Origin: a virus
Lineage: Duplodnaviria > Heunggongvirae > Uroviricota > Caudoviricetes
DNA length: 30,375 nt
Direction: 5' to 3' (one strand)
IMG/VR virus record: IMGVR_UViG_3300044613_002694
Span: 1 to 30,375 of that record
This document shows, one piece after another, positions 2,059 to 20,993 of this stretch; the stretch's first letter is position 1, and every line of letters begins with the position of its first letter. A program made the position numbers and the translations under genes. The notes under the pieces are model-generated. The model searched no databases. It saw only the letters and a list, made by a program, of their open reading frames with translations, and had not been told where the DNA came from.

Positions 2059-2069
2059 TGTGTTTTGGT

Positions 2070-2087
2070 ATATTGAGGTGATCATGA
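2070..2087 (+). promoter_or_regulatory. Non-coding leader copy of the array junction motif, serving as SD of unit 1
   Basis: ATATTGAGGTGATCATGA, 17/18 identical to junction ATATTGAGGTGGTCATGA; GAGGTGATC complements the 16S rRNA 3' end. Confidence 0.85.
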
Positions 2088-2266
2088 AGCGAGTAAAATT
2101 TAGTGCATCTACCTTCCGTAAATTCATGAATGAGACACAGGAGTTGAATTGGGTTGAGTCGTTTGAGTTACATGGGTTTAAGACGTATCGGTATGATTGT
2201 ACTAGTTATCCCAGGCATAGTTTGAGTGAAGAAGAGTATACCTGGTTTATATTGAGGTGGTCATGA
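2084..2266 (+). CDS. Array unit 1, class A
   Basis: Start after leader SD; ends WFILRWS. Confidence 0.85.
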   Translation: MKRVKFSASTFRKFMNETQELNWVESFELHGFKTYRYDCTSYPRHSLSEEEYTWFILRWS

Positions 2267-2487
2267 CATTTTGTATATTGTATGATGATTTACCTACATC
2301 AATAAAAAGCAATCTTGAGGAGCATTGTGGTTGGACTGCTGGTATTGATCCATCGATAGGTGACTTGTTATGTCAGCAAGTTGAGCGTAATGAGTTATTA
2401 AAATTTCATGCGACTATTTCTAACCATGATGTTATCGAATTTGAAAATGAAGCGTATTATACGTTATTTGTATTGAGGTGGTCATGA
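2263..2487 (+). CDS. Array unit 2, class D
   Basis: ATGA overlap; ends LFVLRWS. Confidence 0.85.
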   Translation: MTFCILYDDLPTSIKSNLEEHCGWTAGIDPSIGDLLCQQVERNELLKFHATISNHDVIEFENEAYYTLFVLRWS

Positions 2488-2672
2488 AGTATTTTAATTT
2501 ACTGGAGTTTCCGAAGTTTCTTGAAGAATATGAAAGTGACAGTGGTACTTGGTATGATAGTTTAAAAAGGGCTGGATATAGTTCAGTTGATCAGCATGGG
2601 CCGTTTGGACGTGAAAATTCGTATTCTATGAGTGATGAGCATTGGACTTGGTTTATATTGAGGTTTTTATGA
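2484..2672 (+). CDS. Array unit 3, class A
   Basis: ATGA overlap; ends WFILRFL. Confidence 0.85.
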   Translation: MKYFNLLEFPKFLEEYESDSGTWYDSLKRAGYSSVDQHGPFGRENSYSMSDEHWTWFILRFL

Positions 2673-2851
2673 TTTTTAATTTAATGGGGTTTCCGAAATT
2701 TCGTAGGTTTGCTGCTGGTGATGGGTATGATACATGGGAAGCTAGTTTACGTAATAATGGATTTCCATCTGCCAGGGTGCATGATTATAATGATTTAATA
2801 TATGAGATGGATGATATTGAGTATACTTGGTTTGTATTGAGGTGGTCATGA
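2669..2851 (+). CDS. Array unit 4, class A
   Basis: ATGA overlap; ends WFVLRWS. Confidence 0.85.
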   Translation: MIFNLMGFPKFRRFAAGDGYDTWEASLRNNGFPSARVHDYNDLIYEMDDIEYTWFVLRWS

Positions 2852-3036
2852 ATAGGGTATATTTTAATATTAAAGATTTTCCCAATTTTAGAAAAGAAGC
2901 ACTAAACTATTCAGGTACGCTCGATGATACGATGAGAAGAATGGGGTTTAAATCTGCAAAATTCAGACTTCAAGGTCCTAATGCATGGGGTTTAAGTGAA
3001 GAAGAATATACCTGGTTTGTGTTGAGGTTTTCATGA
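2848..3036 (+). CDS. Array unit 5, class A (5' half identical to unit 18)
   Basis: ATGA overlap; ends WFVLRFS. Confidence 0.85.
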   Translation: MNRVYFNIKDFPNFRKEALNYSGTLDDTMRRMGFKSAKFRLQGPNAWGLSEEEYTWFVLRFS

Positions 3037-3242
3037 AGCAGTTTCATATATCTGACTACCCAAATTTTTACTATTATGCAAAACGTATTGCTAAAGATGA
3101 ACTGGAGAGAACCGGTAAAAGACCCTTATATAGTGAGATAATGATACGTGAAGGATATAGATCTGCGATTATGGCTGAACCTGGGCAAGGTTGGTGTATG
3201 GATGATGTGGATTTTACTTGGTTTATATTGAGGTGGTCATGA
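3033..3242 (+). CDS. Array unit 6, class A
   Basis: ATGA overlap; ends WFILRWS. Confidence 0.85.
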   Translation: MKQFHISDYPNFYYYAKRIAKDELERTGKRPLYSEIMIREGYRSAIMAEPGQGWCMDDVDFTWFILRWS

Positions 3243-3448
3243 ATGTACTTACACTTACGTTATATAGGGAATCACGAGTGGGTCTTAACATTGTTAAGTT
3301 ATATATGGCATCTAGTTATTATAATTGGCCTGAGTTTATTAAAACACTTGATGATAATATAGTTGATGTTTTTGTTGCTCCCTTTTACACTGATATTACA
3401 TTTGAGAGTGAAGCACATAAGACTTGGTTCTTAATGAGGTATGCATGA
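3239..3448 (+). CDS. Array unit 7, class B
   Basis: ATGA overlap; ends WFLMRYA. Confidence 0.85.
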   Translation: MNVLTLTLYRESRVGLNIVKLYMASSYYNWPEFIKTLDDNIVDVFVAPFYTDITFESEAHKTWFLMRYA

Positions 3449-3693
3449 GTCAAAAATTAGGATGGAAAAAGAAATACCCGTTTAAAGCTACTATAAAAAG
3501 TGATAGTGTAGAAGCGTCAGCATGGTTAAGATCACAGTTTGGGCATGATTATTTAACACTATCGTCCGGTAGAAGGCTAGTACTCAATAGAAAAGACCGG
3601 GTATGGGCGTTTGAGAAATGGGAGTATACTGGTTCTACCTATGGATTTGGTAATGAAGAACATAAGACTTGGTTTTTATTGAGGTGGTCATGA
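3445..3693 (+). CDS. Array unit 8, class C-like
   Basis: ATGA overlap; ends WFLLRWS. Confidence 0.85.
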   Translation: MSQKLGWKKKYPFKATIKSDSVEASAWLRSQFGHDYLTLSSGRRLVLNRKDRVWAFEKWEYTGSTYGFGNEEHKTWFLLRWS

Positions 3694-3917
3694 GTCAATT
3701 AAAGGTAGTCACTTTCTCATCTATGGATCGTAATATCTATGCGGAATGGGAGTTATCAGAGAAATTTTATGGGTACGACATTTCTTGGACTGGGTATATA
3801 GAATCATTACCGCATGTTAAAGATGCAAAGTTTGTTTATGGGGATGGTGATTCATATACCTTGATCACATTTGATAGTGAAGAACATAAGACTTGGTTTA
3901 TATTGAGGTATTCATGA
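3690..3917 (+). CDS. Array unit 9, class B
   Basis: ATGA overlap; ends WFILRYS. Confidence 0.85.
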   Translation: MSQLKVVTFSSMDRNIYAEWELSEKFYGYDISWTGYIESLPHVKDAKFVYGDGDSYTLITFDSEEHKTWFILRYS

Positions 3918-4183
3918 AGAATATATTTACAGGCAATTGGCCTATTACATCAGATGGTTATTACATGGATCTTCCAGAAGGATGGGCTGGGGTATATACG
4001 GTTAAACAACTCAACTTACTTGGATTTGTTGCAGATTTGGAAGGTTATGCCGAGGTAGTAGACTGGATTCATAAAAACATCAAAAATGTTGATCGTAATG
4101 TATGGAGTAAGGGTTTTGGCAGTGCTCAATTTGCATTTAGAAAGAAATCGGATTATACTTGGTTTATATTGAGGTATTCATGA
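3914..4183 (+). CDS. Array unit 10, class C-like
   Basis: ATGA overlap; ends WFILRYS. Confidence 0.85.
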   Translation: MKNIFTGNWPITSDGYYMDLPEGWAGVYTVKQLNLLGFVADLEGYAEVVDWIHKNIKNVDRNVWSKGFGSAQFAFRKKSDYTWFILRYS

Positions 4184-4386
4184 TACAACTAAAAGTAAAA
4201 ATAAATTCAAGCATGGATCATAAATTACGTGAAGAATTCAACAACGTAGTTTGGGAAGACCTTATTATTGGGTATTATGGAATTATTGATGCCGAATATA
4301 TTCAATCAGGTAGTGAAACCGGTTGTACTACTATTGTATTTAAATCAGACGAATCTAAAACTTTTTTCTTAATAAAATACTCATGA
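4180..4386 (+). CDS. Array unit 11, class B
   Basis: ATGA overlap; ends FFLIKYS. Confidence 0.85.
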   Translation: MIQLKVKINSSMDHKLREEFNNVVWEDLIIGYYGIIDAEYIQSGSETGCTTIVFKSDESKTFFLIKYS

Positions 4387-4586
4387 TATATTATGTAGAT
4401 ATATTGCATACAACCACTTGGACAATTCAAGCGAGTGGTAGAGTTATGTTAACCTATGAAACTTCTGAATGGTTGAAAAAGAATTGTAAGGGTAGTTTCA
4501 TGTTAACCTGGGAAAACTGGCCATTTTATCGATTGGCGTTTAGTAATGAAGAAGATCGTAATTGGTTTGTATTGAGGTGGTCATGA
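4383..4586 (+). CDS. Array unit 12, class C
   Basis: ATGA overlap; ends WFVLRWS. Confidence 0.85.
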   Translation: MIYYVDILHTTTWTIQASGRVMLTYETSEWLKKNCKGSFMLTWENWPFYRLAFSNEEDRNWFVLRWS

Positions 4587-4777
4587 AAACAATTAAGATA
4601 AATGATTTTCCAAAATACACAACCGAGTTTCACAATGATGGATACGATACATGGGAAGATAGTATTAGGGCTAATGGATATAAAAGTGTAAAAGTTAATG
4701 CTGTCCATCCTTTTTTTGGCACGGTGTTAGATTTATCAGATGAAGATTATACTTGGTTCTTATTGAGGTGGTCATGA
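4583..4777 (+). CDS. Array unit 13, class A
   Basis: ATGA overlap; ends WFLLRWS. Confidence 0.85.
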   Translation: MKTIKINDFPKYTTEFHNDGYDTWEDSIRANGYKSVKVNAVHPFFGTVLDLSDEDYTWFLLRWS

Positions 4778-4989
4778 TAACCATCAAACCTTCACTGATG
4801 GATGAATGGTGGGTTAATTTTACCATGTCGTTATACGAGCAGGGATGGCTTGGAATGAGCTTTGAAAAACAATTGGTGGTACGCGAATCAGAATTAAATC
4901 GATACCATGTCACGTATGATATACATCAATATACCTTGACATTTGAGTCAGAAGCCTATTATAATTGGTTTATTTTGAGGTGGTCATGA
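4774..4989 (+). CDS. Array unit 14, class E body with D-type tail
   Basis: ATGA overlap; WWVNF motif; ends WFILRWS. Confidence 0.85.
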   Translation: MITIKPSLMDEWWVNFTMSLYEQGWLGMSFEKQLVVRESELNRYHVTYDIHQYTLTFESEAYYNWFILRWS

Positions 4990-5213
4990 GTTGTATGTTA
5001 CATATACCCTATGGTTCTGTTATGGACTATAAGTTAGAAGAGCAATGGTATATACCTGATTGTGCTGATGATATTCAATGGTCTAATTATTTATTATCGA
5101 TTAGTAAGGGTATAATTGATGTTCGTGCTGCAACAGTTAATGGGGTCAATGGTACTATAGTTAAATTCAACACAGAAGAACATAAGACTTGGTTTGTATT
5201 GAGGTGGTCATGA
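4986..5213 (+). CDS. Array unit 15, class B
   Basis: ATGA overlap; ends WFVLRWS. Confidence 0.85.
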   Translation: MSCMLHIPYGSVMDYKLEEQWYIPDCADDIQWSNYLLSISKGIIDVRAATVNGVNGTIVKFNTEEHKTWFVLRWS

Positions 5214-5404
5214 GTTGTATATTGGAGATACCAGTGATATCAACTTTAGAAGACAATATAGCCAAATATTATGGTACAATAGAGTGGCTGGATATAGCAA
5301 GGCATGAAGTTGGGATATCCAGTGTTTCATATAACAGATTTATTACCTACGTTGAGTTTGCAACTGAAGCACATAAGACTTGGTTTTTATTGAGGTGGTC
5401 ATGA
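5210..5404 (+). CDS. Array unit 16, class B
   Basis: ATGA overlap; ends WFLLRWS. Confidence 0.85.
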   Translation: MSCILEIPVISTLEDNIAKYYGTIEWLDIARHEVGISSVSYNRFITYVEFATEAHKTWFLLRWS

Positions 5405-5604
5405 GTCAATTAACGATAAAGAATAAATCTGCTTTGGAGAGAAAGTTATATGATGAATGGCGGAATAGTCCAGCTATAACATGGGTAGCCTTTATTAAGT
5501 CACTTGACAAGAATATTATTAGTGTTCGGTATGCTAATCCATACACTGATATTTGGTTTGATGATGATGCACGTAAGAATTGGTTTATATTGAGGTGGTC
5601 ATGA
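5401..5604 (+). CDS. Array unit 17, class B (close paralog of unit 24)
   Basis: ATGA overlap; ends WFILRWS. Confidence 0.85.
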   Translation: MSQLTIKNKSALERKLYDEWRNSPAITWVAFIKSLDKNIISVRYANPYTDIWFDDDARKNWFILRWS

Positions 5605-5792
5605 ATAGGGTATATTTTAATATTAAAGATTTTCCCAATTTTAGAAAAGAAGCACTAAACTATTCAGGTACGCTCGATGATACGATGAGAAGAATGGGTT
5701 ATAAAACTGCAACATTCAAAGCCAATGGTACTGTGAATGCATGGGGGTTGAGCGAAGAAGAATATACTTGGTTTGTATTGAGGTGGTCATGA
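5601..5792 (+). CDS. Array unit 18, class A
   Basis: ATGA overlap; ends WFVLRWS. Confidence 0.85.
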   Translation: MNRVYFNIKDFPNFRKEALNYSGTLDDTMRRMGYKTATFKANGTVNAWGLSEEEYTWFVLRWS

Positions 5793-6046
5793 TTAGATTA
5801 AGCATTTATAAACCAAGCATTATTGGTGCAACTGCTTGGGACAGTTGTACGAATGAATGGAAGACCATGGTGAGAGAACTGATGTCCAGGTATTCAGATT
5901 GGCCAGATCGTGATGATACCTGGTATCTAATTAATCAGGAATTACAGAAATATCATGGGAGTTTAGATAGGCTTGATAATGAGGTCAAAGAAATTATATT
6001 TGATAGTGCTGAAGGTAAGACTTGGTTTTTATTGAGGTATTCATGA
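5789..6046 (+). CDS. Array unit 19, class E-like
   Basis: ATGA overlap; ends WFLLRYS. Confidence 0.85.
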   Translation: MIRLSIYKPSIIGATAWDSCTNEWKTMVRELMSRYSDWPDRDDTWYLINQELQKYHGSLDRLDNEVKEIIFDSAEGKTWFLLRYS

Positions 6047-6249
6047 GTGAGTTATATTTAAAAGAGGGTACTGCGTTAGATCATAAACTGACTCGGCTAT
6101 TTTTTAGTAGTCAAACACGTGCTTGGTATAAGTTTGTTAAATCGCTTGATGAGAACATTATTGATGTCAGTGGTTTAACGGGTAGTATTACAAGAATCAC
6201 ATTTAACAGTGAAGCACATAAGACTTGGTTTATATTGAGGTATTCATGA
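6043..6249 (+). CDS. Array unit 20, class B
   Basis: ATGA overlap; ends WFILRYS. Confidence 0.85.
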   Translation: MSELYLKEGTALDHKLTRLFFSSQTRAWYKFVKSLDENIIDVSGLTGSITRITFNSEAHKTWFILRYS

Positions 6250-6461
6250 GTGTATTGTATATGGGTAATAATTTACCATTATATAAGAAACTGTCTGATT
6301 TATATTTGGCATCTAGTATTGTTGGGTGGTATAGTTTTATCAAATCGCTTGATGACAATATAGTTAGTGTTGACCGTGTTAAATTGGGTGGTGTTGAAGT
6401 TATGCAGATTGAATTTGATAATGAAGCACATAAGACTTGGTTTTTATTAAAATATTCATGA
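6246..6461 (+). CDS. Array unit 21, class B
   Basis: ATGA overlap; ends WFLLKYS. Confidence 0.85.
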   Translation: MSVLYMGNNLPLYKKLSDLYLASSIVGWYSFIKSLDDNIVSVDRVKLGGVEVMQIEFDNEAHKTWFLLKYS

Positions 6462-6691
6462 GTGAGTTAATTATAATGTCTAGTTCAACGATAGATGTTA
6501 ATCTTGAATCTGGGTGGGCTAGTGAATTTTATCAGATTGATGATTGGTTGGATTATTTGAAATCATTACCCACGGTCATTGATGCAACCTGGCATGAGCG
6601 TGAATGGAATGGTGGTGATAATCCATCATATACTTTGATCACATTTGAAAGTGAAGCACATAAGAATTGGTTTGTATTGAGGTGGTCATGA
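6458..6691 (+). CDS. Array unit 22, class B
   Basis: ATGA overlap; ends WFVLRWS. Confidence 0.85.
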   Translation: MSELIIMSSSTIDVNLESGWASEFYQIDDWLDYLKSLPTVIDATWHEREWNGGDNPSYTLITFESEAHKNWFVLRWS

Positions 6692-6909
6692 GTCAAGTAA
6701 AAGTACTTTTTAACTCAGCAATGGATTAAAATCTTGAAGAGTATGTACGTAGTGGCGTGAATAATGATTGGGAAGAAGTTATAAAATCATTACCCTATGT
6801 TAAAGATGCGAAATGGATTACTATTGGTTCGTCGATAGGTGGGTCCTATACTTTAATTACATTTGAAAATGAAGCACATAAGAATTGGTTTATAATGAGG
6901 TGGTCATGA
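6688..6909 (+). pseudogene. Array unit 23, class B, in-frame TAA at 6727-6729
   Basis: MSQVKVLFNSAMD*NLEEY...ITFENEAHKNWFIMRWS in one frame; could be an assembly error. Confidence 0.85.
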
Positions 6910-7109
6910 GTCAATTAACGATAAAGAATAATTCTACAATAGAGTGGAAGTTATACGATGCATGGAGAAATGCTGGAGTTTCATCATGGGAAATATTTAT
7001 TAAGTCACTTGACAAGAATATTATCAGGGTTCGTTACGATACCCCATATACAAATGTTTGGTTCAAGGATGACGCACACACAACTTGGTTTATTTTGAGG
7101 TGGTCATGA
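6906..7109 (+). CDS. Array unit 24, class B
   Basis: ATGA overlap; ends WFILRWS. Confidence 0.85.
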   Translation: MSQLTIKNNSTIEWKLYDAWRNAGVSSWEIFIKSLDKNIIRVRYDTPYTNVWFKDDAHTTWFILRWS

Positions 7110-7327
7110 GTGAATTAAAAGTACCCTCACCATCTACTATGGATAGTAATATCGAAGCGGAATGGGAATCATCAGAATCATATGGGTTCGATACTTGGAC
7201 AAGGTATATAGAATCATTACCTCACGTTAAATCAGCAAGGCTTGTTTTTAGAGCTGGTGATAATCATACCTTGATCACATTTGAAAATGAAGCGCATAAG
7301 AATTGGTTTATATTGAGGTATTCATGA
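7106..7327 (+). CDS. Array unit 25, class B
   Basis: ATGA overlap; ends WFILRYS. Confidence 0.85.
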   Translation: MSELKVPSPSTMDSNIEAEWESSESYGFDTWTRYIESLPHVKSARLVFRAGDNHTLITFENEAHKNWFILRYS

Positions 7328-7551
7328 TTTTTGATCCCCATACTATTAAGCTGACTGGTACTTTATATGATAATTGCATCTATGAAAATAGATTGTCAGA
7401 TGAAGTATGGGAGTGGTTATTTGACCATTGTAGTGGCCCTAATACTGATCGTTTTTATTATTATACTGGATACACGCCTGGAAGGGATACCCATTATATT
7501 CGGTTTGATTATAGGGAACATAGTAATTGGTTCTTATTGAGATGGAGTTAA
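7324..7551 (+). CDS. Array unit 26, class C
   Basis: ATGA overlap; ends WFLLRWS. Confidence 0.85.
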   Translation: MIFDPHTIKLTGTLYDNCIYENRLSDEVWEWLFDHCSGPNTDRFYYYTGYTPGRDTHYIRFDYREHSNWFLLRWS

Positions 7552-7552
7552 G

Positions 7553-7633
7553 ATGTCAATAAAAATTAATGAGTGTTCTATTGAATTCGACAATGAATCC
7601 TGTTATAATTGGGTTTTAGTGAGGTGGTCTTGA
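7553..7633 (+). CDS. Array unit 27, 26-aa mini-unit MSIKINECSIEFDNESCYNWVLVRWS
   Basis: Hand translation; N-terminus joined directly to the tail motif. Confidence 0.7.
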   Translation: MSIKINECSIEFDNESCYNWVLVRWS

Positions 7634-7848
7634 TTGATTTTATTTTATATGATGGTAGCCCACTTGATGTAAAATTAATGGCTATGTGGGAGGATGACCA
7701 CTACTCTGACCGGCTAAATTATGAAATTTTTGTTGGCTCATTAGATCCGCACATTGTCAATGCAAAAGCAGATGAAAATTATGCGTCAATTACCCTAACA
7801 TTTGAAAACGAAAAATATTTAACCTGGTTTATATTAAAATGGTCATAG
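7630..7848 (+). CDS. Array unit 28, class B-like, TTG start
   Basis: TTGA overlap after GAGG; ends WFILKWS. Confidence 0.8.
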   Translation: MIDFILYDGSPLDVKLMAMWEDDHYSDRLNYEIFVGSLDPHIVNAKADENYASITLTFENEKYLTWFILKWS

Positions 7849-8051
7849 AAAAAGAACAGTATCCGTATTCGATTAATACTTCCTGTATTAGACGTGCATT
7901 TAGGCAAGACATATGGGAGTGGTGCAATCATGTGTTCGGCCCTTATCAAGGTAATGATAAATGGTCATGGGGTGATGATATAGTTAAGTTTAGCACAATC
8001 CATTGTGCCGAGTTTTTTGCATGGAGGTGGTATGGATACGACGTGGACTGA
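7839..8051 (+). CDS. Array unit 29, class C, degenerate tail
   Basis: ATG from AAA-TGG of unit 28; ends FFAWRWYGYDVD. Confidence 0.75.
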   Translation: MVIEKEQYPYSINTSCIRRAFRQDIWEWCNHVFGPYQGNDKWSWGDDIVKFSTIHCAEFFAWRWYGYDVD

Positions 8052-8238
8052 GTTAACACGCACGATGTATCGGGAAATGGCACGTGACGCTCGTAGACAA
8101 GGTTACATTTTCAATAGTGATTTCATCCGCGCAGAAAATATTGGGGATTATTATCCACGAATTCGGAATTACGAATTTGGTGCGATTAAATTTAGAACCC
8201 CAGAATTAAAAACGTTTTATTTATTGAGGTGGTCATGA
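8032..8238 (+). CDS. Array unit 30, unclassified
   Basis: GGAGGTGG SD; ends FYLLRWS. Confidence 0.8.
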   Translation: MDTTWTELTRTMYREMARDARRQGYIFNSDFIRAENIGDYYPRIRNYEFGAIKFRTPELKTFYLLRWS

Positions 8239-8447
8239 AACAGGTTAAGATAGGGTTTGAGAATTTTTATTTAGAGGGTTTACTATTTAAACTTACCCCA
8301 GCAGTTACGAATTGGCTTATTGCACATAAAGTGGAAGATTACCGGGTAAGACATGAACATTTATATGATAGACCTGCTCTGGAAATAGAGTTCGGCGATA
8401 ATGTACCAGATGAAATAATCAATTGGTTTATTTTGAGATGGTTATGA
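8235..8447 (+). CDS. Array unit 31, class C-like
   Basis: ATGA overlap; ends WFILRWL. Confidence 0.85.
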   Translation: MKQVKIGFENFYLEGLLFKLTPAVTNWLIAHKVEDYRVRHEHLYDRPALEIEFGDNVPDEIINWFILRWL

Positions 8448-8644
8448 AAACATTTAATATTAGCGATTTTCCTCGATTTTTAGATGAGTGGATTTTATAC
8501 CCAGATTTTTCTAGTTATCACCACGCTGCTGCTGATTATTATATGAGACAGGTTGGATTCAAATCAGCAAGGTTTGTTAATATTGAGGTTGGTTGGGGCT
8601 TGAGTGATGAAGAATATACATGGTTTTTAATAAGGTATTCATGA
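8444..8644 (+). CDS. Array unit 32, class A
   Basis: ATGA overlap; ends WFLIRYS. Confidence 0.85.
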   Translation: MKTFNISDFPRFLDEWILYPDFSSYHHAAADYYMRQVGFKSARFVNIEVGWGLSDEEYTWFLIRYS

Positions 8645-8838
8645 AAAACATTGACATCTATAAATTTAAAAAATTCATTGCTGCATGGCAATCTGAGCCT
8701 TATTCTCGGTTAAAGGGTGATGAATGTATGCGACGAATGGGTTTTAAATCGGCAATGTATGTAATTTTTTCAAAAGATAATAAATCATGGCAATTAAGTG
8801 AAGAAGAATATACTTGGTTTGTCTTGAGGTGGTCATGA
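8641..8838 (+). CDS. Array unit 33, class A
   Basis: ATGA overlap; ends WFVLRWS. Confidence 0.85.
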   Translation: MKNIDIYKFKKFIAAWQSEPYSRLKGDECMRRMGFKSAMYVIFSKDNKSWQLSEEEYTWFVLRWS

Positions 8839-9035
8839 AGTCGATCTCATTAGAGTCAGCACCGTGTTTAGCCATGCGTGAATATTACTCGTTGAATGTA
8901 TGGGAGCCTGGGTGTACTATAATTTATTTAGATTGGGTGTTTAATGAATATCGTGCAACATTTGATAAAGAAAATTGGACATATGTATTTGAACATGATG
9001 AAGAATATACTTGGTTTTTATTGAGGTGGTCATGA
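8835..9035 (+). CDS. Array unit 34, unclassified
   Basis: ATGA overlap; ends WFLLRWS. Confidence 0.85.
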   Translation: MKSISLESAPCLAMREYYSLNVWEPGCTIIYLDWVFNEYRATFDKENWTYVFEHDEEYTWFLLRWS

Positions 9036-9295
9036 GTGAGTTATATTTAAAAGAGGGTACTGCGTTATATCATAAACTGACTCGGCTATTTTTTAGTAGT
9101 CAAACTTATACCTGGTATAAGGATGAATGGGAATTATCAGAATTTTATGAATTCAGTCATTGGACAAGGTATATAGAATCATTACCTCACGTTAAATCTG
9201 CACAGTTTGTTGCTAGTAAACCTGGTAAAGAATATACCTTGATCACATTTGATAGTGAAGAACATAAGACTTGGTTTATATTGAGGTATTCATGA
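9032..9295 (+). CDS. Array unit 35, class B chimera of unit 20-, 25- and 9-like segments
   Basis: ATGA overlap; ends WFILRYS. Confidence 0.85.
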   Translation: MSELYLKEGTALYHKLTRLFFSSQTYTWYKDEWELSEFYEFSHWTRYIESLPHVKSAQFVASKPGKEYTLITFDSEEHKTWFILRYS

Positions 9296-9477
9296 AAATA
9301 CTCGATTTATATTATTTTCCAAAATACAAAACAGAATTTATAAACGATGGATACAGTACATGGGAAGCTAGTGTTAGGGCTAATGGATTTAAAAGTGCAG
9401 TTACTTGTTCAGCGTTTGGTGAAAGATTATGGATATCAGATGAAGAGTATACTTGGTTCTTATTGAGGTGGTCATGA
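9292..9477 (+). CDS. Array unit 36, class A
   Basis: ATGA overlap; ends WFLLRWS. Confidence 0.85.
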   Translation: MKILDLYYFPKYKTEFINDGYSTWEASVRANGFKSAVTCSAFGERLWISDEEYTWFLLRWS

Positions 9478-9683
9478 CTATAAAAATTGATTCGAAGATA
9501 GTCCCAAAGGTTGTTTTAAAAAATTTACACGATCAATGTAGCCATATGGTTGGCACAGGCAAATATTGGGCAACGATAAATGATGAGTTGAATAAATTTG
9601 GTGCGAAATATGATCATTCTAAATCATGTTTTCATTTTAACGATGAAGCTATGTATCATTGGTTCTTATTGAGGTGGTCATAA
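9474..9683 (+). CDS. Array unit 37, class D
   Basis: ATGA overlap; ends WFLLRWS. Confidence 0.85.
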   Translation: MTIKIDSKIVPKVVLKNLHDQCSHMVGTGKYWATINDELNKFGAKYDHSKSCFHFNDEAMYHWFLLRWS

Positions 9684-9928
9684 TGCATCGATTAGAAATA
9701 CCAGGATGTATCTTCGAATCTACCCCAATCTGGTGGCAAAACTTTATCCATGATTGCCGATTAAAATACCCAAATGATTTTGGAAGTGATTTTCGGCGGG
9801 TAACTACTAAAATTCTTAAAGAAGAGTATCATGCATCAAAGATTTATGATAGACGTATTAATGATATAGAAGCCTTGGCATTTGACAAAGAAGAATATAA
9901 GACTTGGTTTGTATTGAGGTGGTCATGA
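9683..9928 (+). CDS. Array unit 38, class E
   Basis: TAATG overlap; PIWWQNF; ends WFVLRWS. Confidence 0.85.
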   Translation: MHRLEIPGCIFESTPIWWQNFIHDCRLKYPNDFGSDFRRVTTKILKEEYHASKIYDRRINDIEALAFDKEEYKTWFVLRWS

Positions 9929-10146
9929 GTTTTACAATTAATTATAAGATGTTACCTAAAAATGTAAAAAAAAATTTTGAAGATTTTTGCTTGTGGGAAC
10001 ATAAACAACTCGATTATGAGATGTGTATACGAAACGAAGCAGTTGAACTTGCCAAATTTAATGCAATACACGATAAATCTAACAATGATTTGTTTGTTTT
10101 TGAAAACGAAGCCTGTTATAATTGGTTTGTATTGAGGTGGTCATGA
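9925..10146 (+). CDS. Array unit 39, class D
   Basis: ATGA overlap; ends WFVLRWS. Confidence 0.85.
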   Translation: MSFTINYKMLPKNVKKNFEDFCLWEHKQLDYEMCIRNEAVELAKFNAIHDKSNNDLFVFENEACYNWFVLRWS

Positions 10147-10337
10147 GTTTTACTATTGAATGGCCATCTATACCATACGATGTTCGACGGAAATTTTGTG
10201 CTGCATATCCTGTTCCTATTAATATGAATATTTTTAAAGCAGAATTAGCAAAGTTTCATTGTGAGTATACCAGTGATAATCTAGCCATTTTTGAAAGCGA
10301 AGCACATTATAATTGGTTTTTGTTGAGATGGAGTTAG
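10143..10337 (+). CDS. Array unit 40, class D
   Basis: ATGA overlap; ends WFLLRWS. Confidence 0.85.
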   Translation: MSFTIEWPSIPYDVRRKFCAAYPVPINMNIFKAELAKFHCEYTSDNLAIFESEAHYNWFLLRWS

Positions 10338-10338
10338 T

Positions 10339-10521
10339 ATGATATTTGATGTGACAGATTTTCCTAAATTTGTGAGTTATGCTGGAGGAAACTTTCCCAA
10401 TTCGGTGCTAATGTCTGATAGTCTAATAGCTGCCGGGTATAAATCAACCAAGTTTAGATCTTATGGTTCTTGGTATATGGATGATGAAGAATACACTTGG
10501 TTTGTATTGAGGTGGTCATGA
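10339..10521 (+). CDS. Array unit 41, class A
   Basis: 1-nt gap; ends WFVLRWS. Confidence 0.85.
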   Translation: MIFDVTDFPKFVSYAGGNFPNSVLMSDSLIAAGYKSTKFRSYGSWYMDDEEYTWFVLRWS

Positions 10522-10715
10522 GTTTTACTATCGATTGGATAGAAATACCGTTCAACCCTCGAAAAAACTTTTGTGACAAATATGTTCATCCCTATGACGA
10601 TCTCAGTGTTTTTAGAGCAGAATTGGCAAAGTTTCATTGTGAGTATACCAGTGATAATCTAGCCATTTTTGAAAGCGAAGCACATTACACTTGGTTTGTA
10701 TTGAGGTGGTCATGA
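10518..10715 (+). CDS. Array unit 42, class D (62 nt identical to unit 40)
   Basis: ATGA overlap; ends WFVLRWS. Confidence 0.85.
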   Translation: MSFTIDWIEIPFNPRKNFCDKYVHPYDDLSVFRAELAKFHCEYTSDNLAIFESEAHYTWFVLRWS

Positions 10716-10930
10716 TACAATTAAGAATACCTTCACCATCTAATATAGATGAAAATCTTGAAGCAGAATGGGAAGCAGAAGATATTAATATAGATGAATG
10801 GTTACGTTATTTGAAATCATTAACTTATGTTAAGGATGCAGAATGGATTGATAGGTTGCTGAATCCCTATACACTTATTACATTTGAAAGTGAAGCACAT
10901 AAGAACTGGTTTATTTTGAGGTGGTCATGA
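10712..10930 (+). CDS. Array unit 43, class B
   Basis: ATGA overlap; ends WFILRWS. Confidence 0.85.
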   Translation: MIQLRIPSPSNIDENLEAEWEAEDINIDEWLRYLKSLTYVKDAEWIDRLLNPYTLITFESEAHKNWFILRWS

Positions 10931-11367
10931 ACCGGAGTTTACGTATTATTAATAAAGGATTTAAAGCAGAAATCACAAACCGGGATAACGAATATAAGTT
11001 TATGGATCAGGTTAGGTGGTGCTACGAACATAAAAGTAAGATAAGGTTCTTATGGTTTTTTGAACGTGATGCTAAATTTGAATGTATGAGTTTAGTTAAT
11101 ACCAATACGTTTTATTTTGAAAAAGAATCAGATCGTAATTGGTTTCTAATTAGGTGGTCATGCATGATACATTTAAAAGTATTCACTTTCTCAGCCATGG
11201 ATGATAATCTCTCCAAGGAATGGGATCGTTTAGATTCGTGGATACCGTGGATACAATATATAAAATCATTACCACATGTTATAGAGGCGGAATGGAACAC
11301 TACCTATACACGTATTACATTTAAAAATGAAGCACATAAGAATTGGTTTGTATTGAGGTGGTCATGA
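10927..11367 (+). CDS. Array unit 44, in-frame fusion of a class C and a class B unit
   Basis: Internal WFLIRWS-C-MIHL; CATGCATG at 11159-11166; ends WFVLRWS. Confidence 0.85.
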   Translation: MNRSLRIINKGFKAEITNRDNEYKFMDQVRWCYEHKSKIRFLWFFERDAKFECMSLVNTNTFYFEKESDRNWFLIRWSCMIHLKVFTFSAMDDNLSKEWDRLDSWIPWIQYIKSLPHVIEAEWNTTYTRITFKNEAHKNWFVLRWS

Positions 11368-11558: not shown

Positions 11559-11758
11559 CGTATTCAGTAAGATTCTTTGACATACCATATCGTGTCAGGT
11601 ATAATTACATCAAAGAATACAAACTTGTTGAGACAGTCGAGGGTTATGAAGAATTGATGAGCAAGTATCGATTTAAAAGAGTTATGCGTGATCACCTGTT
11701 GTATTACGAGTTTGAATCCGAAAAATATTACACTTGGTTTTTATTAAGATTTTCATGA
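11555..11758 (+). CDS. Array unit 46, class D-like
   Basis: ATGA overlap; ends WFLLRFS. Confidence 0.85.
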   Translation: MTYSVRFFDIPYRVRYNYIKEYKLVETVEGYEELMSKYRFKRVMRDHLLYYEFESEKYYTWFLLRFS

Positions 11759-12012
11759 ATACAGAAATAGAATTAACATCTTTTTTAGAAGATTGTCCAG
11801 CAGTTTGGCGTAAATTCAGTCAGATTGAAATAGAGTCTACCGATATTTACGAATTACCAGTAGCTGATGCAATAACCAGATTAAATGAGTTATTAAAAAA
11901 ATATCATGCTGAATATACCCATGCATACAGTGTAAATGGAAATGTTTGTCGTCGATATTTAAAATTCGAAAGTGAAGCGCATAAGAATTGGTTTATTATC
12001 AAATGGTCATAA
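11755..12012 (+). CDS. Array unit 47, class E-like
   Basis: ATGA overlap; ends WFIIKWS. Confidence 0.85.
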   Translation: MNTEIELTSFLEDCPAVWRKFSQIEIESTDIYELPVADAITRLNELLKKYHAEYTHAYSVNGNVCRRYLKFESEAHKNWFIIKWS

Positions 12013-14257: not shown

Positions 14258-14460
14258 CGTTTGTAATAAGTGAGCACAATTTACCCATTAACTATAGACG
14301 GTTTAACGACCATTGTAACAAGAATGAAAACGGTACAAGATATTGGGTTAACGTTCGTCAAGAACTAGAAAAATTCAAAGCAACCTATAATAACATAACA
14401 AATCAACTTGTGTTTGAATCAGAAGCCCATTATAATTGGTTTGTATTGAGGTGGTCATGA
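14254..14460 (+). CDS. Array unit 58, class D
   Basis: ATGA overlap; ends WFVLRWS. Confidence 0.85.
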   Translation: MTFVISEHNLPINYRRFNDHCNKNENGTRYWVNVRQELEKFKATYNNITNQLVFESEAHYNWFVLRWS

Positions 14461-14684
14461 CATTTGAAGTTAAGTTTAAAAACATACCAGACATAACTAG
14501 AGAGAATTTTCTAACAGCATGTGGTAAATATGATGATTTTGTATCCAAGTATGATTTCGACACAAGACGAAATCATGAATTAGCGAAGTGTAAAGGTAAC
14601 CGGGTTAGTAATGGTCTAGGTGAACTGGTATACGAATTTGAAAGTGAAGCCCATTATAATTGGTTTGTAGTGAGGTGGTCATGA
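14457..14684 (+). CDS. Array unit 59, class D
   Basis: ATGA overlap; ends WFVVRWS. Confidence 0.85.
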   Translation: MTFEVKFKNIPDITRENFLTACGKYDDFVSKYDFDTRRNHELAKCKGNRVSNGLGELVYEFESEAHYNWFVVRWS

Positions 14685-14905
14685 CTTTTGAAATTTATTT
14701 TGAAAACATACCACAAATTGTTAAAACGAATTTCCTTATAGATTGTGATAATTATCACCAGAGTGGTGTAAATCACATTAACGAAACAATTAATAAAGAA
14801 TTAGCGAAGTTCAAGGGTAAACGGTTTAAGAATTGCCATGACAAGCTGGTATACGAATTTGAAAGTGAAGCCCATTATAATTGGTTTGTATTGAGGTATT
14901 CGTAA
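14681..14905 (+). CDS. Array unit 60, class D
   Basis: ATGA overlap; ends WFVLRYS. Confidence 0.85.
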   Translation: MTFEIYFENIPQIVKTNFLIDCDNYHQSGVNHINETINKELAKFKGKRFKNCHDKLVYEFESEAHYNWFVLRYS

Positions 14906-15129
14906 TGTATAAAGTAACCATCCCATTTGATCCAGAATGGCCTGATGAAAACTGTAAGGTACTATTGGCAAAAGAATGGTGTCACCAAACGTTTGGTAGC
15001 CGTCGATGCCCAATTACGTTAAAGTATCGTTGGATGACTAGATATACGTGGACCGGTAATAGATATATAATATATTTCTTTTTTGAAAAAGAAGAACATG
15101 CAACGTAGTTCAAATTACAATGGGCATGA
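14905..15129 (+). pseudogene. Array unit 61, class C, motif Trp codon replaced by TAG at 15106-15108
   Basis: ...EKEEHAT*FKLQWA* in frame; only the tail motif is lost. Confidence 0.75.
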
Positions 15130-15368: not shown

Positions 15369-15577
15369 TATCAATTAATATAACACATAAACAATGGAAC
15401 AAATTAGCATTCTATCGTGATGAGTCCGATTCTAGTATTGTGAATATGCGTTCATCACGAGAAATGAAACAATATATCAAAGATACCTATCATGGAAATT
15501 ATGATCAACTAAAAGGTTTTGGAACCATCACATTTGAACATGAACATCTTCTAACTTGGTTTTTATTAAATGTATGA
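15365..15577 (+). CDS. Array unit 63, unclassified
   Basis: ATGA overlap; ends WFLLNV. Confidence 0.85.
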   Translation: MISINITHKQWNKLAFYRDESDSSIVNMRSSREMKQYIKDTYHGNYDQLKGFGTITFEHEHLLTWFLLNV

Positions 15578-15794
15578 AATACAAATTAACACACGATAAT
15601 TGGAAAGATCTTGATAGCAAGTTTGACGCAAAAGCTGGCAGGTCGCTCGTTAGAAGTGATCGGATATGTTATGGAAGGAATCGATTATGCAGGAGTATAA
15701 ATTAGATTATGAAGAAGATTACACGAATAGTCGAGACCATGGCACTGTTTCCGGTGAAGCACATCGTATAACTTGGTTTCTATTAAACATATGA
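15574..15794 (+). pseudogene. Array unit 64, frameshifted relative of unit 63
   Basis: MKYKLTHDNWKDL... in one frame and DMLWKES...GEAHRITWFLLNI in another; the shift lies after ~15657. Confidence 0.75.
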
Positions 15795-17163: not shown

Positions 17164-17423
17164 GATTAGAAATTCCAGGTGAAAATTTTTATGAAACCCC
17201 ATTATGGTGGCAAAACTTTATCGACCATCATGAAAAAATCTTTGTGAAAACACATGGTGATTTAACTGTTAATTTTATGATATACACTTCAAATATTTTG
17301 CAATCTGAATACGGTGCTGTTAAAATTTATGAGCAAAATCCAAAAACTGGAAGAGACGAACTAACAGCATTAGAGTTTAATAAAGAAGAAACTCAAACTT
17401 GGTTTTTATTAAAATGGTCATAA
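17160..17423 (+). CDS. Array unit 71, class E (paralog of unit 38)
   Basis: ATGA overlap; ends WFLLKWS. Confidence 0.85.
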   Translation: MRLEIPGENFYETPLWWQNFIDHHEKIFVKTHGDLTVNFMIYTSNILQSEYGAVKIYEQNPKTGRDELTALEFNKEETQTWFLLKWS

Positions 17424-17821
17424 ACCAATTATCTAGAAGATTAAATGCAGTTGGGTTATCATTACAAGAGGATTTTGATTCATTATATAGGAATGGAAGT
17501 TGCTCTTGTCATTGGCACCCACCTTGTAGTTATTGTACACATCCAGGTAATCCATTAAATTTAGAAGAATCAGACGATGTATGGGAAACCGGTATGATAT
17601 GTGAAACTGTAGAAAGCAATCAGCATGATTTTAAATATATGGTTGGATATTTCTTACCATCAGAGATGAAAGAAATGATAGCGTGGTTGACAGAAACATT
17701 TGGTCCATATTCTCATGGTTGGAAGTTTATAGATAATACCAGATGGTATTGTGGCAATAGTCATTTTGTTTTTAAAACAGAAGCTGATCGTAATTGGTTT
17801 GTAATGAGGTGGAGTTCATGA
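17414..17821 (+). CDS. Array unit 72, Cys/His-rich N-terminal domain fused to a class C unit
   Basis: CSCHWHPPCSYC motif; ends WFVMRWSS. Confidence 0.8.
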   Translation: MVINQLSRRLNAVGLSLQEDFDSLYRNGSCSCHWHPPCSYCTHPGNPLNLEESDDVWETGMICETVESNQHDFKYMVGYFLPSEMKEMIAWLTETFGPYSHGWKFIDNTRWYCGNSHFVFKTEADRNWFVMRWSS

Positions 17822-18499: not shown

Positions 18500-18501
18500 C
18501 T

Positions 18502-18938: not shown

Positions 18939-19147
18939 TTAAGCATTCATTAAGCAGATCTGAAATAGCTAACATAGTTAATTATTCAATAGCACATGAA
19001 ATATCAATAGAATCATGTATTAAAGAATGGGGTGGTCAATACGATAACGCAACGCATATTAGAAATCCACATCACCCAGATTATTGGGGGATTGTCAAAT
19101 TTGAAACAGAAGCACTGCGAACTTGGTTTATATTAAGGTGGTCATGA
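18935..19147 (+). CDS. Array unit 78, unclassified
   Basis: ATGA overlap; ends WFILRWS. Confidence 0.85.
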   Translation: MIKHSLSRSEIANIVNYSIAHEISIESCIKEWGGQYDNATHIRNPHHPDYWGIVKFETEALRTWFILRWS

Positions 19148-19413
19148 GAATAGAAGATGAACGGTTACGTTACAAAGTCATCATTGATGATTTAGCGGAT
19201 CTCAGAAAACATGCAGGGGAATTACCACCAGAATACAGTGATACTGATTATGATGAAATAGTCAGGGTCATGTGTGACTGGTGTGAACATCAATTTGGTA
19301 AGAAGAAAGTAAAATGGAATTATTGGCTAGATAGCGCTTATGATCCGCCTGAAGATAATTTCAGTTTTCAAGAAGAACATCATAGAACACTTTTTATATT
19401 GAGATGGTCATGA
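19144..19413 (+). CDS. Array unit 79, class C
   Basis: ATGA overlap; ends LFILRWS. Confidence 0.85.
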   Translation: MRIEDERLRYKVIIDDLADLRKHAGELPPEYSDTDYDEIVRVMCDWCEHQFGKKKVKWNYWLDSAYDPPEDNFSFQEEHHRTLFILRWS

Positions 19414-19601
19414 AACAGTTTAAGATATCTAATTTTCCAAAGTTTGTTGAGTATGCTTACTCCAATCCAGAACTAAATAATTTGAATCAATGGGATGAGA
19501 TATTAGCAGCTGCCGGTTTCAAAACAGCAATATATAATGGCATTAATTCCTGGTGCATGGATGATGAAGAATATACTTGGTTTGTGTTGAGGTGGTCATG
19601 A
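19410..19601 (+). CDS. Array unit 80, class A
   Basis: ATGA overlap; ends WFVLRWS. Confidence 0.85.
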   Translation: MKQFKISNFPKFVEYAYSNPELNNLNQWDEILAAAGFKTAIYNGINSWCMDDEEYTWFVLRWS

Positions 19602-19804
19602 GAGTAATCACCTGCCGTGGCACAGACAATTACCCATACGGAGTTATCATCAGAGAACCATCATCTGATAGAAGCATGATTACACAATGGTGTGTAGATC
19701 AATTTGGAAGTCAATACGAGTCTGATCGATATAGATATGCTGGGAATTTAATATATTTTTCAAATCAAGATGACCGAAATTGGTTTATATTAAGGTGGTC
19801 ATGA
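19598..19804 (+). CDS. Array unit 81, class C
   Basis: ATGA overlap; ends WFILRWS. Confidence 0.85.
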   Translation: MRVITCRGTDNYPYGVIIREPSSDRSMITQWCVDQFGSQYESDRYRYAGNLIYFSNQDDRNWFILRWS

Positions 19805-20091
19805 ATATTTTTAAAAGAATTTACAATTATGTGTTAATTAAGTTTCGACCACCCTATGTTTTGTTATCACGCAAAGATACAGATCTCTTATGGAAGAAAT
19901 ATTGCAACTGCAAATTTAATGGGGGGAAGTATAAGTTTATCAGGGATTTTATCAAAGATGAATTTAAAGGCATTTCAGCTGTTGAGTGGACTACTACTGC
20001 TACTGATGAACCATTTGACCAATTAAAATTGACATTCGAAAAAGAACAATACAAAACATGGTTTTTACTAAATTGGGAATATCATGACTAA
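19801..20091 (+). CDS. Array unit 82, unclassified
   Basis: ATGA overlap; ends WFLLNWEYHD. Confidence 0.85.
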   Translation: MNIFKRIYNYVLIKFRPPYVLLSRKDTDLLWKKYCNCKFNGGKYKFIRDFIKDEFKGISAVEWTTTATDEPFDQLKLTFEKEQYKTWFLLNWEYHD

Positions 20092-20290
20092 AGAATTCAA
20101 AATTAGCATATACCATTTACCATCTAGCATGCGTGATAAGTTAGGTGATGAATTCCATACGTGGAATTCATCAAAATTGTATGAAGAATTGGCCACATTC
20201 AATGGCAGATTAGCATTAGTTAATGATTGGCGGTATCTTATATTTCAAAGTGAAGCACACTTTCAATGGTTTTCTATGAAATGGCTATAA
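20084..20290 (+). CDS. Array unit 83, class D-like
   Basis: 8-nt overlap; ends WFSMKWL. Confidence 0.85.
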   Translation: MTKEFKISIYHLPSSMRDKLGDEFHTWNSSKLYEELATFNGRLALVNDWRYLIFQSEAHFQWFSMKWL

Positions 20291-20493
20291 TTAAGCGATG
20301 CTATGGGTTCATACCTTATTCCAATGCCTATGATTATTATTTGGCAAATCTCAAAGACGGTGATAAGGTTAGAAGCATAATTGAAGAGGAGTATCATTGC
20401 AAATTTATATATCGTGATATGACAATTTCAGGTATATGTATGCAATTTGACAATGATGAAGATTACACTTGGTTTGTATTAAAATGGTCATGA
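20281..20493 (+). CDS. Array unit 84, unclassified
   Basis: ATG from AAA-TGG; ends WFVLKWS. Confidence 0.8.
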   Translation: MAIIKRCYGFIPYSNAYDYYLANLKDGDKVRSIIEEEYHCKFIYRDMTISGICMQFDNDEDYTWFVLKWS

Positions 20494-20747
20494 AACCTAA
20501 AAGAATAATTATGTATGGATGGCCGGATTGTCCTGTCTATTGGCAGGATTTTCTAATGTCACTACTTCCTATACTTGCTACATTACCTGATAGACCAGCA
20601 AGAATTGATTATGTCAATGACATACTAAAGAAATATCATGGCACATACACCGAGAATATATTTCATGAGGAGTCACTAGTGAATGTATTACTATTTGAAG
20701 ATGAATCATATTACAATTGGTTTGTAATACAATGGGGATCTAAATGA
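20490..20747 (+). CDS. Array unit 85, class E
   Basis: ATGA overlap; CPVYWQDF; ends WFVIQWGSK. Confidence 0.85.
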   Translation: MKPKRIIMYGWPDCPVYWQDFLMSLLPILATLPDRPARIDYVNDILKKYHGTYTENIFHEESLVNVLLFEDESYYNWFVIQWGSK

Positions 20748-20962
20748 CATCCAATGAAAAATATATTGTTAATAATATTCCACCTAATATAGAGAAGAAT
20801 ATAGATGAGATTACTGGATATAATGATCGATCTGTCCCATTCGAGAGTTGGGTAGAAGCAGAAAGACAATTATTAGCAGATTATGGATGTGAACTGAGTG
20901 ATGCAGGTTATGAATTCGAGAGTGAAGCACATTACACTTGGTTAATATTAAAATTTTCTTGA
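20744..20962 (+). CDS. Array unit 86 (last), class D-like
   Basis: ATGA overlap; ends WLILKFS; SD lost; stop lies inside the next -35. Confidence 0.85.
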   Translation: MTSNEKYIVNNIPPNIEKNIDEITGYNDRSVPFESWVEAERQLLADYGCELSDAGYEFESEAHYTWLILKFS

Positions 20963-20987: not shown

Positions 20988-20993
20988 AACATC

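Follow-up and report, generated by a model that had tools for sequence, protein, structure and literature searches.

The first 30,375 nucleotides (nt) of a 94,375-nt IMG/VR viral contig (IMGVR_UViG_3300044613_002694), hereafter called the window, carry a tandem array of small genes of the WFxLRW mini-protein family on the plus strand (2084-20962), with 83 intact open reading frames (ORFs; 84 domains) and four broken units. The repeat of about 24 nt that recurs along this array is the coding 3' end of the units of this tandem paralog family. The evidence presented below makes it probable that the array is an early, sigma70-driven repertoire, formed by tandem expansion of one phage mini-protein family, with translationally coupled units and a role in host interaction. 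The source is an uncultured freshwater (lake) phage. CheckV rates the contig of 94,375 nt as only about 40% complete, and the phage is therefore of jumbo size.

All 83 intact ORFs are ATG-started, lie on the plus strand and encode proteins of 54-146 amino acids (aa; median 71 aa). With the single fusion ORF counted as two and the broken units included, the array contains about 88 domain units, which bears out the roughly 87 consecutive plus-strand units described in a first-pass annotation of this DNA. The coding density of the array is 98.5%. Among the 82 junctions, 58 are 4-nt ATGA overlaps, seven are 10-nt overlaps and four have the form TAATG. The gaps of at most 2 nt given by that annotation hold at most junctions and fail at the broken units and at three further spacers of 11, 36 and 65 nt. 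A strict C-terminal motif (W[FY]xx[RKNQ][WFY] followed by 0-8 residues) was found in 75 of the 83 ORFs, in agreement with the claim of a terminal motif shared by nearly all units, and one exact C-terminal 15-mer, TTGAGGTGGTCATGA, closes 30 of them. At the DNA level, a degenerate junction pattern gave 41 forward matches and one reverse match in the contig, and none in either control.

The array is preceded by a terminator-like GC hairpin with a T tail (2003-2024, plus strand; identified by consensus scan and sequence reading), located 3' of an HNH-endonuclease gene, and by a promoter-like site (2030-2058, plus strand) composed of TTGACT, a 17-nt spacer and TAGTAT, with TG before the -10 hexamer (nine of 12 matches, extended -10). 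Next comes a gene-less copy of the junction, the leader copy (2069-2086, plus strand), which contains GAGGTGATC followed by the first ATG. The final junction of the array is degenerate, having neither a Shine-Dalgarno (SD) site nor an ATG. Every element of the layout proposed at first pass (terminator, promoter, leader copy, array, degenerate last repeat) was thus located by scan and reading. The picture of a family restricted to the array needs correction: about 29 further members are found elsewhere on the 94-kb contig, on both strands, bringing the contig total to about 113.

The last five codons of the units are kept at the nucleotide level (TTG AGG TGG TCA TGA). AGG accounts for 58 of the 63 Arg codons (92%) at the Arg position of the motif, compared with 6% in the 45 large ORFs of the contig and 15% in the unit bodies. 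TTG is used at 45 of 60 Leu positions (18% in large ORFs), and Ser-stop is written TCA-TGA in 54 of 77 motif-bearing units. In all five classes of unit, the last 12 codons show fewer synonymous differences than the bodies. The junction codons yield a 9-nt SD match, GAGGTGGTC, situated 0-5 nt 5' of the ATG that overlaps the TGA; the last two bases of the ATG of the next unit open this TGA stop. GAGGTGGTC would pair with nine bases of the universal 16S 3' tail, including one G-U pair. The leader copy GAGGTGATC, which encodes no protein, is complementary to the 16S 3' tail over 9 nt without a mismatch (duplex -14.7 kcal/mol). For most junctions the SD duplex has a predicted energy of -14 kcal/mol, whereas 35 other genes of the contig average -4.9. 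In members that lie outside tight arrays, the motif is retained at the amino-acid level with AAA, AGA or CGG in place of AGG, which indicates that the peptide and the RNA signal are two separate constraints on the same bases. Since the conserved structural motif L-R-W-S carries the signal, the protein C-terminus and the translation signal constrain each other. A ribosome ending one unit would re-initiate on the next, and the spacer-free polycistronic mRNA would be read unit after unit. SD strength declines along the array, GAGGTG being present at 59-65% of first-half junctions and at 14% of those in the last quarter (Spearman rho 0.33, p 0.002).

Such strong sites might also be taken to mean that the RNA is the active product, with about 50 very strong SD sites on a long mRNA trapping host 30S subunits and the peptides being secondary. 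This explanation would account for an SD strength far above that of the other genes of the phage and for the RNA-level selection seen in the leader copy. We nevertheless consider it very improbable, given that the C-terminal module is conserved as protein while its codons differ in members outside tight arrays, that the two modelled classes (B and D, see below) fold confidently, that the ratio of non-synonymous to synonymous polymorphism (pN/pS) is below 1, and that thousands of members stand alone in other phages.

The first-pass annotation had drawn a parallel with integron and CRISPR arrays. In a cassette system of this sort, the 24-nt repeat would be the site for a dedicated recombinase or processing enzyme, which agrees with the regular alternation of repeat and variable unit behind a promoter, with the leader copy of the repeat, and with the edges of whole-unit insertions and deletions between relatives, which fall in the repeat. 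The parallel does not survive the analysis of the junctions, where the repeat is coding, SD site and start codon account for the synonymous choices, ATGA overlaps prevail and there is no non-coding spacer. No attC sites are seen, most junctions being 4-nt overlaps and the repeat being the ORF's own 3' end. CRISPR features are likewise absent, the units being ORFs of 180-440 nt against spacers of 25-50 nt, with no cas genes in the window. As the annotation had stated, no integrase, Cas protein or reverse transcriptase is found among the larger ORFs of the window, and there is no IntI-type tyrosine recombinase among the larger ORFs flanking the array, the window being the part that was fully scanned. 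In addition, one recombination event maps to a 45-nt identity inside paralog bodies, like ordinary homologous exchange. The cassette explanation is therefore largely refuted and retains hardly any probability.

We then compared the unit proteins with one another. BLAST clustering of the bodies gave groups of 18, 15, 12, 9, 6, 5 and 5 members, in addition to many singletons. The order of body classes along 2084-20962 is ACAAAABDB.b.A.b.BA.BBBBB.BD..AA.BACECCACBDBACcEDEADDD.D.CCCDD.E...DCEDCC.D..DAD..... In comparisons of profile hidden Markov models made from bodies stripped of their last ~16 residues, classes A, B, C and E resembled neither one another nor D, while D, F and G are related. With the tails included, every class matches over the last ~20 residues, the constant tail motif being F-x-F-x-x-E-x-x-x-x-W-F-x-L-R-W-S. 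The N-terminal halves thus form at least five sequence-unrelated classes on a common C-terminal module, as the variable body and constant C-terminus proposed earlier would have it.

Structure prediction with AlphaFold2 covered classes B and D. Class D (60-sequence alignment) is modelled as strand-strand-helix-strand-strand-helix and class B as strand-helix-helix-strand-strand-helix, with mean predicted local distance difference test (pLDDT) scores of 91.4 and 94.3, respectively. A class A unit is present in the ESM Atlas (pLDDT 0.81), its nearest annotated structures being ferredoxin-like subdomains (acyltransferase small domain, PurS). Each unit is accordingly predicted to be a compact alpha/beta domain of about 70 residues, in which, in both the B and D models, the conserved tail forms the final hairpin and helix. 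As the tail is part of one compact domain in these models, the variable body is the N-terminal half of the same domain, not a separate one. The near-invariant W, F, R and W occupy helix positions i, i+1, i+4 and i+5, a spacing that would fit a buried helix face. The modelling suggested at first pass gave confident compact folds for single B and D units, and it speaks against the C-terminal helix as a docking tag, since the models place this helix last in the compact domain with its aromatic residues spaced for burial. A homodimer prediction for unit 19598 scored 0.00, was run without controls and was counted neither for nor against anything. The units contain no hydrophobic stretch and about 18% aromatic residues, and their isoelectric points (pI) range from 4 to 10 within each class, which suggests soluble proteins with diversified surfaces. 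Uniform acidity of the DNA-mimic type is ruled out by the same pI range. That the units are real proteins is further supported by the 83 frames of about 70 codons that stay open in DNA of 34% GC, by the pN/pS of 0.33 between strains and by the confident folds.

The longest single unit (17414-17821, plus strand; 135 aa) has a D-type domain behind an N-terminal extension of about 70 aa. This extension bears a Cys/His cluster, CSC-H-x-H-PPC-x-x-C, and the unit is 98.5% conserved in the related strain L150. The Pfam search of this unit gave no match; the cluster is a possible zinc knuckle.

Coupled small proteins with a common module could also be subunits of a hetero-oligomer or lattice, made in fixed proportions and joined through this module. 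Genes for the subunits of a complex are typically coupled in translation, and the two-layer alpha/beta sandwich has weak structural neighbours that are oligomeric (BMC shell proteins, DCoH, ACT, the ArgR C-domain; Z 4.8-5.7). These matches are, however, generic (Z below 6), the number of units varies between relatives, which an obligate assembly would tolerate poorly, and many phages have only 1-3 members. We regard a mixed assembly as improbable.

An assembly artefact can be discounted. Exactly the same unit proteins are encoded on JGI, ENA and Logan contigs of many samples. Contigs of at least 12 samples are collinear with the array at 98-100% identity, and 12 contigs align collinearly with window positions 1-27904 at this level. 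In 14 lake-water runs, 76-96% of the sampled 31-mers of 2084-12000 were recovered, and the contigs of these runs match the array without differences. The confirming assemblies, independent and collinear, are all short-read; they argue against the artefact feared at first pass.

A more distant strain, L150, is syntenic with the window and 93-97% identical over the common parts. Compared with the window it shows gains of five and two units, a loss of one unit and a tandem duplicate of unit 10712. Five different units replace the fused pair 10927-11367, and two extra units between 12445 and 12699 have their edges exactly at the junction motif. The adjacent class C paralogs 14457 and 14681 (14457-14905, plus strand) have a 45-nt exact stretch common to both 3' modules. 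In L150 they are replaced by a hybrid unit whose 5' part is as in 14457 and whose last ~60 nt are as in 14681, joined within this identical stretch, as unequal crossing-over would give. In strain L135, which is 98% identical on either side, the class C unit 18057 is exchanged for a class E-like unit, with neighbours only ~57% identical. Within the window itself, unit 9032-9295 (plus strand) is a mosaic drawing on units 6043, 7106 and 3690 by maximal exact matches of 37-65 nt: its 5' 76 nt resemble unit 6043 with one mismatch, 9160-9198 equals 7195-7233, and the last 65 nt equal 3854-3918. Exact identity between units extends over 111 nt in 2848/5601 and over 27-43 nt at many junctions, and the conserved 3' module offers 27-45 nt of exact identity between units.

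From the gains, losses and hybrid of L150, the exchange in L135 and the mosaic 9032-9295, it follows that the number and content of units change by homologous recombination in the conserved module. The idea of an expandable and recombining repertoire is thereby upheld. The static order that would have argued against it is found among strains at 98-100% identity, and turnover is found in the relative at 93-97%. Joints seen in Logan contigs of run X2 (e.g. 3244->4202 and 4588->5657; depth 7 against ~42) hint at a co-occurring variant with fewer units, but they have short sides, lie at repeats and were aligned at 90% likeness; they were not counted. Five related fragments carry 13-41 family members each, and a large number of members is, judging by these sequences, a trait of the lineage.

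The four broken units differ in their lesions. A class B unit (6688-6909, plus strand) has a TAA at codon 14, the remainder being in frame and ending in WFIMRWS. A 5'-truncated remnant (7552-7630, plus strand) has only ...FDNESCYNWVLVRWS left, and in the unit after it TTG replaces the ATG expected in the ATGA overlap. A D-type unit (14905-15119, plus strand) has TGG changed to TAG just before the C-terminal motif, and another unit (15574-15794, plus strand) is frameshifted; strain L150 has intact versions of both, of 74 aa and 73 aa respectively. The two-unit in-frame fusion (10927-11367, plus strand) joins a D/G-type and a B-type domain after loss of the stop (TCATGCATGA).

These observations also raise the possibility of a neutral or dosage-driven accordion, in which unequal crossing-over would have amplified units for dosage or by drift and most copies would be individually functionless. 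Single-class runs (AAAA, BBBBB), gene-conversion tracts, mosaic units and the four broken units agree with it, as does the weaker constraint on the array: between strains, pN/pS is 0.33 (26 non-synonymous and 18 synonymous changes) against 0.14 in flanking genes, the counts being small. The paralogs are, on the other hand, saturated at synonymous sites (dS, the synonymous divergence, above 1), so that the expansion is old, and yet 83 of 87 frames are open. Divergence has split the bodies into classes unrelated in sequence, and both of those modelled still fold confidently. The same units are kept at 98-100% identity across many lake samples, and related phages retain dozens of members. We therefore judge this explanation unlikely, although less so than the mixed assembly.

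To evaluate the distribution of the family, all 83 units were scanned against Pfam and PHROGs. The best E-values, each for a single member, were 0.008 and 0.007, respectively, which is chance level for 83 queries. A sequence profile search of PDB returned only Skp1 (E 0.26, noise), Foldseek gave no match to PDB at E<=0.001, and VIA-align reached at best Z 5.7 with generic two-layer alpha/beta folds and no specific relative. Matches in BFVD, the AlphaFold DB and the ESM Atlas were only uncharacterised proteins of uncultured phages. A profile search, as proposed at first pass, was made with the D type (A2). Among 1.84 billion cluster representatives, 3,360 matched at E<=1e-3, all of 48-158 aa and with the domain always C-terminal; the family thus comprises at least this number of metagenomic clusters at 50% identity. 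The source names of the representatives are all "hypothetical protein", and the family, not recognised at first pass, is indeed without a Pfam or PHROGs match. It is defined by the motif F-x-F-x-x-E-x-x-x-x-W-F-x-L-[RK]-W near the stop of a protein of 50-160 aa, and 75 of the 83 array units have the strict form of the motif.

The junction pattern is found in at least 113 IMG/VR contigs with GC contents of 32-54%. In 596 Gb of cellular genomes it gave four matches, about the chance number; two of the four are real members, on contigs of metagenome-assembled genomes that may be phage DNA. Judged from these searches, the family is restricted to phages and has no name in Pfam or PHROGs. Of the body classes, A, B, C and E are confined to the source phage lineage, the D type is widespread, and many phages have only 1-3 members. 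Against cultured phages, neither megablast with window positions 1-12000 nor tblastn with units of classes A-E and a 117-aa member of the contig gave a match. The single match among cultured phages came from a D-type member of another contig (L012). It is a weak one (E 0.09), to Sinorhizobium phage Phosso XYS97730.1, but this protein has the motif and is a recognisable member of the family.

The expression signals of the array were examined next. Perfect sigma70 consensus promoters (TTGACA-N16-18-TATAAT) occur at 18 sites of the contig (14 on the plus and four on the minus strand), compared with 0.1 per strand in composition-matched shuffles, and the phage thus evidently makes heavy use of host sigma70 promoters. 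Those in the window include 376, 1302, 4936, 11577, 20959 and 26740. Two are inside the array, at 4936-4965 (plus strand, 18-nt spacer, inside unit 4774-4989) and 11577-11605 (plus strand, 17-nt spacer, inside unit 11555-11758). A third (20959-20993, plus strand) has a -35 hexamer overlapping the stop codon of the last unit. The two internal sites, with 12 of 12 matches, contradict the view that a single promoter serves the whole array. In T4-type phages, host sigma70 promoters mark early genes. Early expression, as proposed at first pass, is plausible from these consensus promoters; host sigma70 RNA polymerase would transcribe the array early in infection, starting at the promoter at 2030 and at the two internal ones (4936 and 11577). 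Contigs from RNA libraries cover the array only in scattered pieces of 150-400 nt, which are uninformative on transcription, transcript ends or strand.

The larger ORFs around the array encode an HNH/endonuclease VII-like protein, ART-PolyVal proteins, a sigma70 r1.1-tailed protein, NT5C and a 2OG oxygenase. The HNH/endonuclease VII-like gene (1354-1998, plus strand; phrog_1035, E 4e-25) is directly upstream of the array. An ART-PolyVal ADP-ribosyltransferase-like gene (21543-22274, plus strand) and a second, weak one (23086-23715, plus strand) sit just upstream of the gene of a 1007-aa protein (23720-26743, plus strand), the last ~55 residues of which match Sigma70_r1_1 (PF03979, 47 bits). 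The neighbouring ART gene, used for a locus search, found only distant relatives (29-35% identity). The ART-PolyVal and sigma70 region 1.1 neighbours are of a host-modifying type.

The case for an early host-interaction repertoire is contextual. It draws on the sigma70 promoters, these neighbours, the fixed core with variable surfaces, the turnover of units and the restriction of the family to phages. The products would be soluble binders in the cytoplasm that combine a constant core with varied surfaces, and the repertoire would act together on variable host targets, in host takeover or counter-defence.

Several points weigh against this interpretation. The timing of expression is deduced from promoter consensus, and the array pieces in RNA libraries could come from DNA carry-over. 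Coupling between units is likewise deduced from the SD and ATGA signature, and about a quarter of the junctions, mostly distal, have no good SD site, so that coupling cannot be uniform. Strains that are 98-100% identical show a static unit order and nearly no single-nucleotide polymorphisms, and such near-invariance is a poorer fit with a fast arms race. The ratio of non-synonymous to synonymous divergence between paralogs (dN/dS, 0.6-0.75) is unreliable, dS being saturated, and no diversifying selection is therefore inferred from it. Finally, no unit matches a known anti-defence, toxin, immunity or regulator family.

A further lead is given by members of the family that lie outside the array. 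The contig member at 75388-75741 (minus strand; L124:5388-5741) has an N-terminal copy, of about 45 aa, of the most conserved stretch of T4-type major capsid proteins. Capsid-like stretches are also present in members of sequences L014, L066, L051, L038 and L091 and in many metagenomic members. The stretch matches PF07068 positions 2-51 with 30 to 49.5 bits and aligns to residues 94-139 of Tequatrovirus gp23; the Gol residues of gp23 we take to be 93-122. The most conserved part of gp23 holds the Gol peptide, a ligand of EF-Tu and trigger of the Lit protease (PMC3014915). Other metagenomic members contain fragments of tail-fibre or virion proteins, or a LamG domain. In the 83 units of the array, profile scans and comparison with the ORFs of the contig revealed no recognisable fragment of other proteins. 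When all larger ORFs of the contig (about 40% of the genome) were searched with the unit bodies, only family members matched, and no mimicry of the phage's own proteins was seen.

A bolder version, which we hold as tentative and doubtful, is that of a natural display library in which one half-domain encoded by about 45 nt would do four jobs and some 85 co-expressed binders or decoys would face variable host targets. The strand-strand-helix half-domain would serve as fold core, ribosome-binding site, stop/start overlap and recombination joint, and the phage would graft and shuffle unrelated N-terminal halves onto it. The capsid Gol-region and tail-fibre fragments in relatives would fit such a use as binders or decoys.

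Several other features of the locus were recorded. GC content is 32-36%, and GC skew is strongly positive along the array. The HNH/endonuclease VII-like gene has a region of lysine/glutamate/tyrosine-rich repeats (KEYxKEY...) and its own perfect promoter at 1302. Residues ~80-340 of the 1007-aa protein resemble hypothetical proteins of many jumbo phages (RsoM2USA, Atu_ph07, Lu11, and Erwinia and Dickeya phages). Outside the window, the contig codes for AAA-type ATPases, NAD-salvage enzymes, virion proteins, a homing endonuclease and a transposase. A match to Rfam RF01718 (Polynucleobacter-1 RNA) was found at 21041-21200 (plus strand; 57.3 bits, gathering score 37, E 1.6e-11) and was absent from the whole-window run at gathering score. 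It falls in a 580-nt non-coding stretch (20963-21542), about 50 nt 3' of the promoter at 20959-20993, and contigs from RNA libraries (two freshwater metatranscriptome runs) reach their greatest depth in the bin 20756-21400. The match may point to a Polynucleobacter-like host or to a small RNA carried by the phage. Past 27904, two otherwise near-identical strains (L133 and L150) no longer resemble the window at all: they have a PF05268 (GP38 adhesin-like) gene in place of the window's 2OG-Fe(II) oxygenase-like gene (27931-28602) and unannotated ORFs. From the sequences, a possible host-range region seems to have been replaced at strain level.

The 94 kb of the contig hold about 113 members, and an uninterrupted run of 19 kb accounts for 87 of these; to our knowledge, this would rank among the largest described tandem paralog expansions in phages. 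Since none of the clusters, at least 3,360 in number, has a name in Pfam or PHROGs, a large block of phage dark matter could be defined from the array locus. The locus also illustrates how a protein motif becomes locked to a translation signal, with the same element driving the birth and death of genes. If the units are indeed binders of host targets, they would provide dozens of small, well-folded probes for defence and takeover targets of freshwater bacteria.

Some parts of this organisation have counterparts in known systems. In operons coupled by ATGA or TAATG, the SD site lies inside the end of the upstream ORF, and termination followed by re-initiation is expected. The array has the same stop/start overlap and embedded SD site; the difference is that it repeats this dual-coding solution about 60 times running and ties it to the conserved L-R-W-S. 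Like an integron, the array is one-directional, with small promoterless units behind a leader promoter and a gradient from promoter-proximal to distal, whereas its units are homologous to each other and exchanged by homologous recombination. Tandem gene families are also known in viruses of eukaryotes, a further example being the multigene families of African swine fever virus. In the "genomic accordions" of eukaryotic DNA viruses such as poxviruses, copy number likewise shifts by unequal recombination, gene conversion homogenises the paralogs, and such families are linked to host-range and immune-evasion functions (PMC6115191, PMC9973261). Copy-number change by unequal homologous recombination is what strain L150 displays. 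In contrast to accordions, the array is found in a bacteriophage and consists of coupled mini-genes, and its paralogs are ancient, with saturated dS, instead of recent amplifications.

The hyperplastic regions of T4-type phages, with their PeSL (promoter-early stem-loop) cassettes, also hold small, mostly ORFan early genes behind sigma70-like promoters (Arbiol et al. 2010, PMC2839356; PMC4122927). In both cases, a short repeated regulatory motif between genes provides homology for the insertion, deletion or replacement of whole genes among close relatives, and the end points of such events fall in the repeated motif here as well (two-unit insertion and hybrid in L150, replacement in L135). The PeSL repeat is an intergenic promoter and terminator, while that of the array is a coding 3' end with the next SD site and start codon; the three perfect promoters in or at the end of the array have no stem-loop with them. 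The array genes all belong to one paralog family, whereas PeSL regions hold unrelated ORFans, and the scale of the array (~87 units, 19 kb) is far larger. As for the Gol-region mini-proteins (PMC3014915), the same domain family has members with a copy of gp23 94-139, and the 83 array units are without such fragments. The evolutionary mechanics resemble PeSL shuffling and viral accordions, and the expression resembles that of any ATGA-coupled operon. Novel features are the size of the array, a family that has no name, and one short element that combines the roles of fold core, ribosome-binding site, stop/start overlap and recombination joint.

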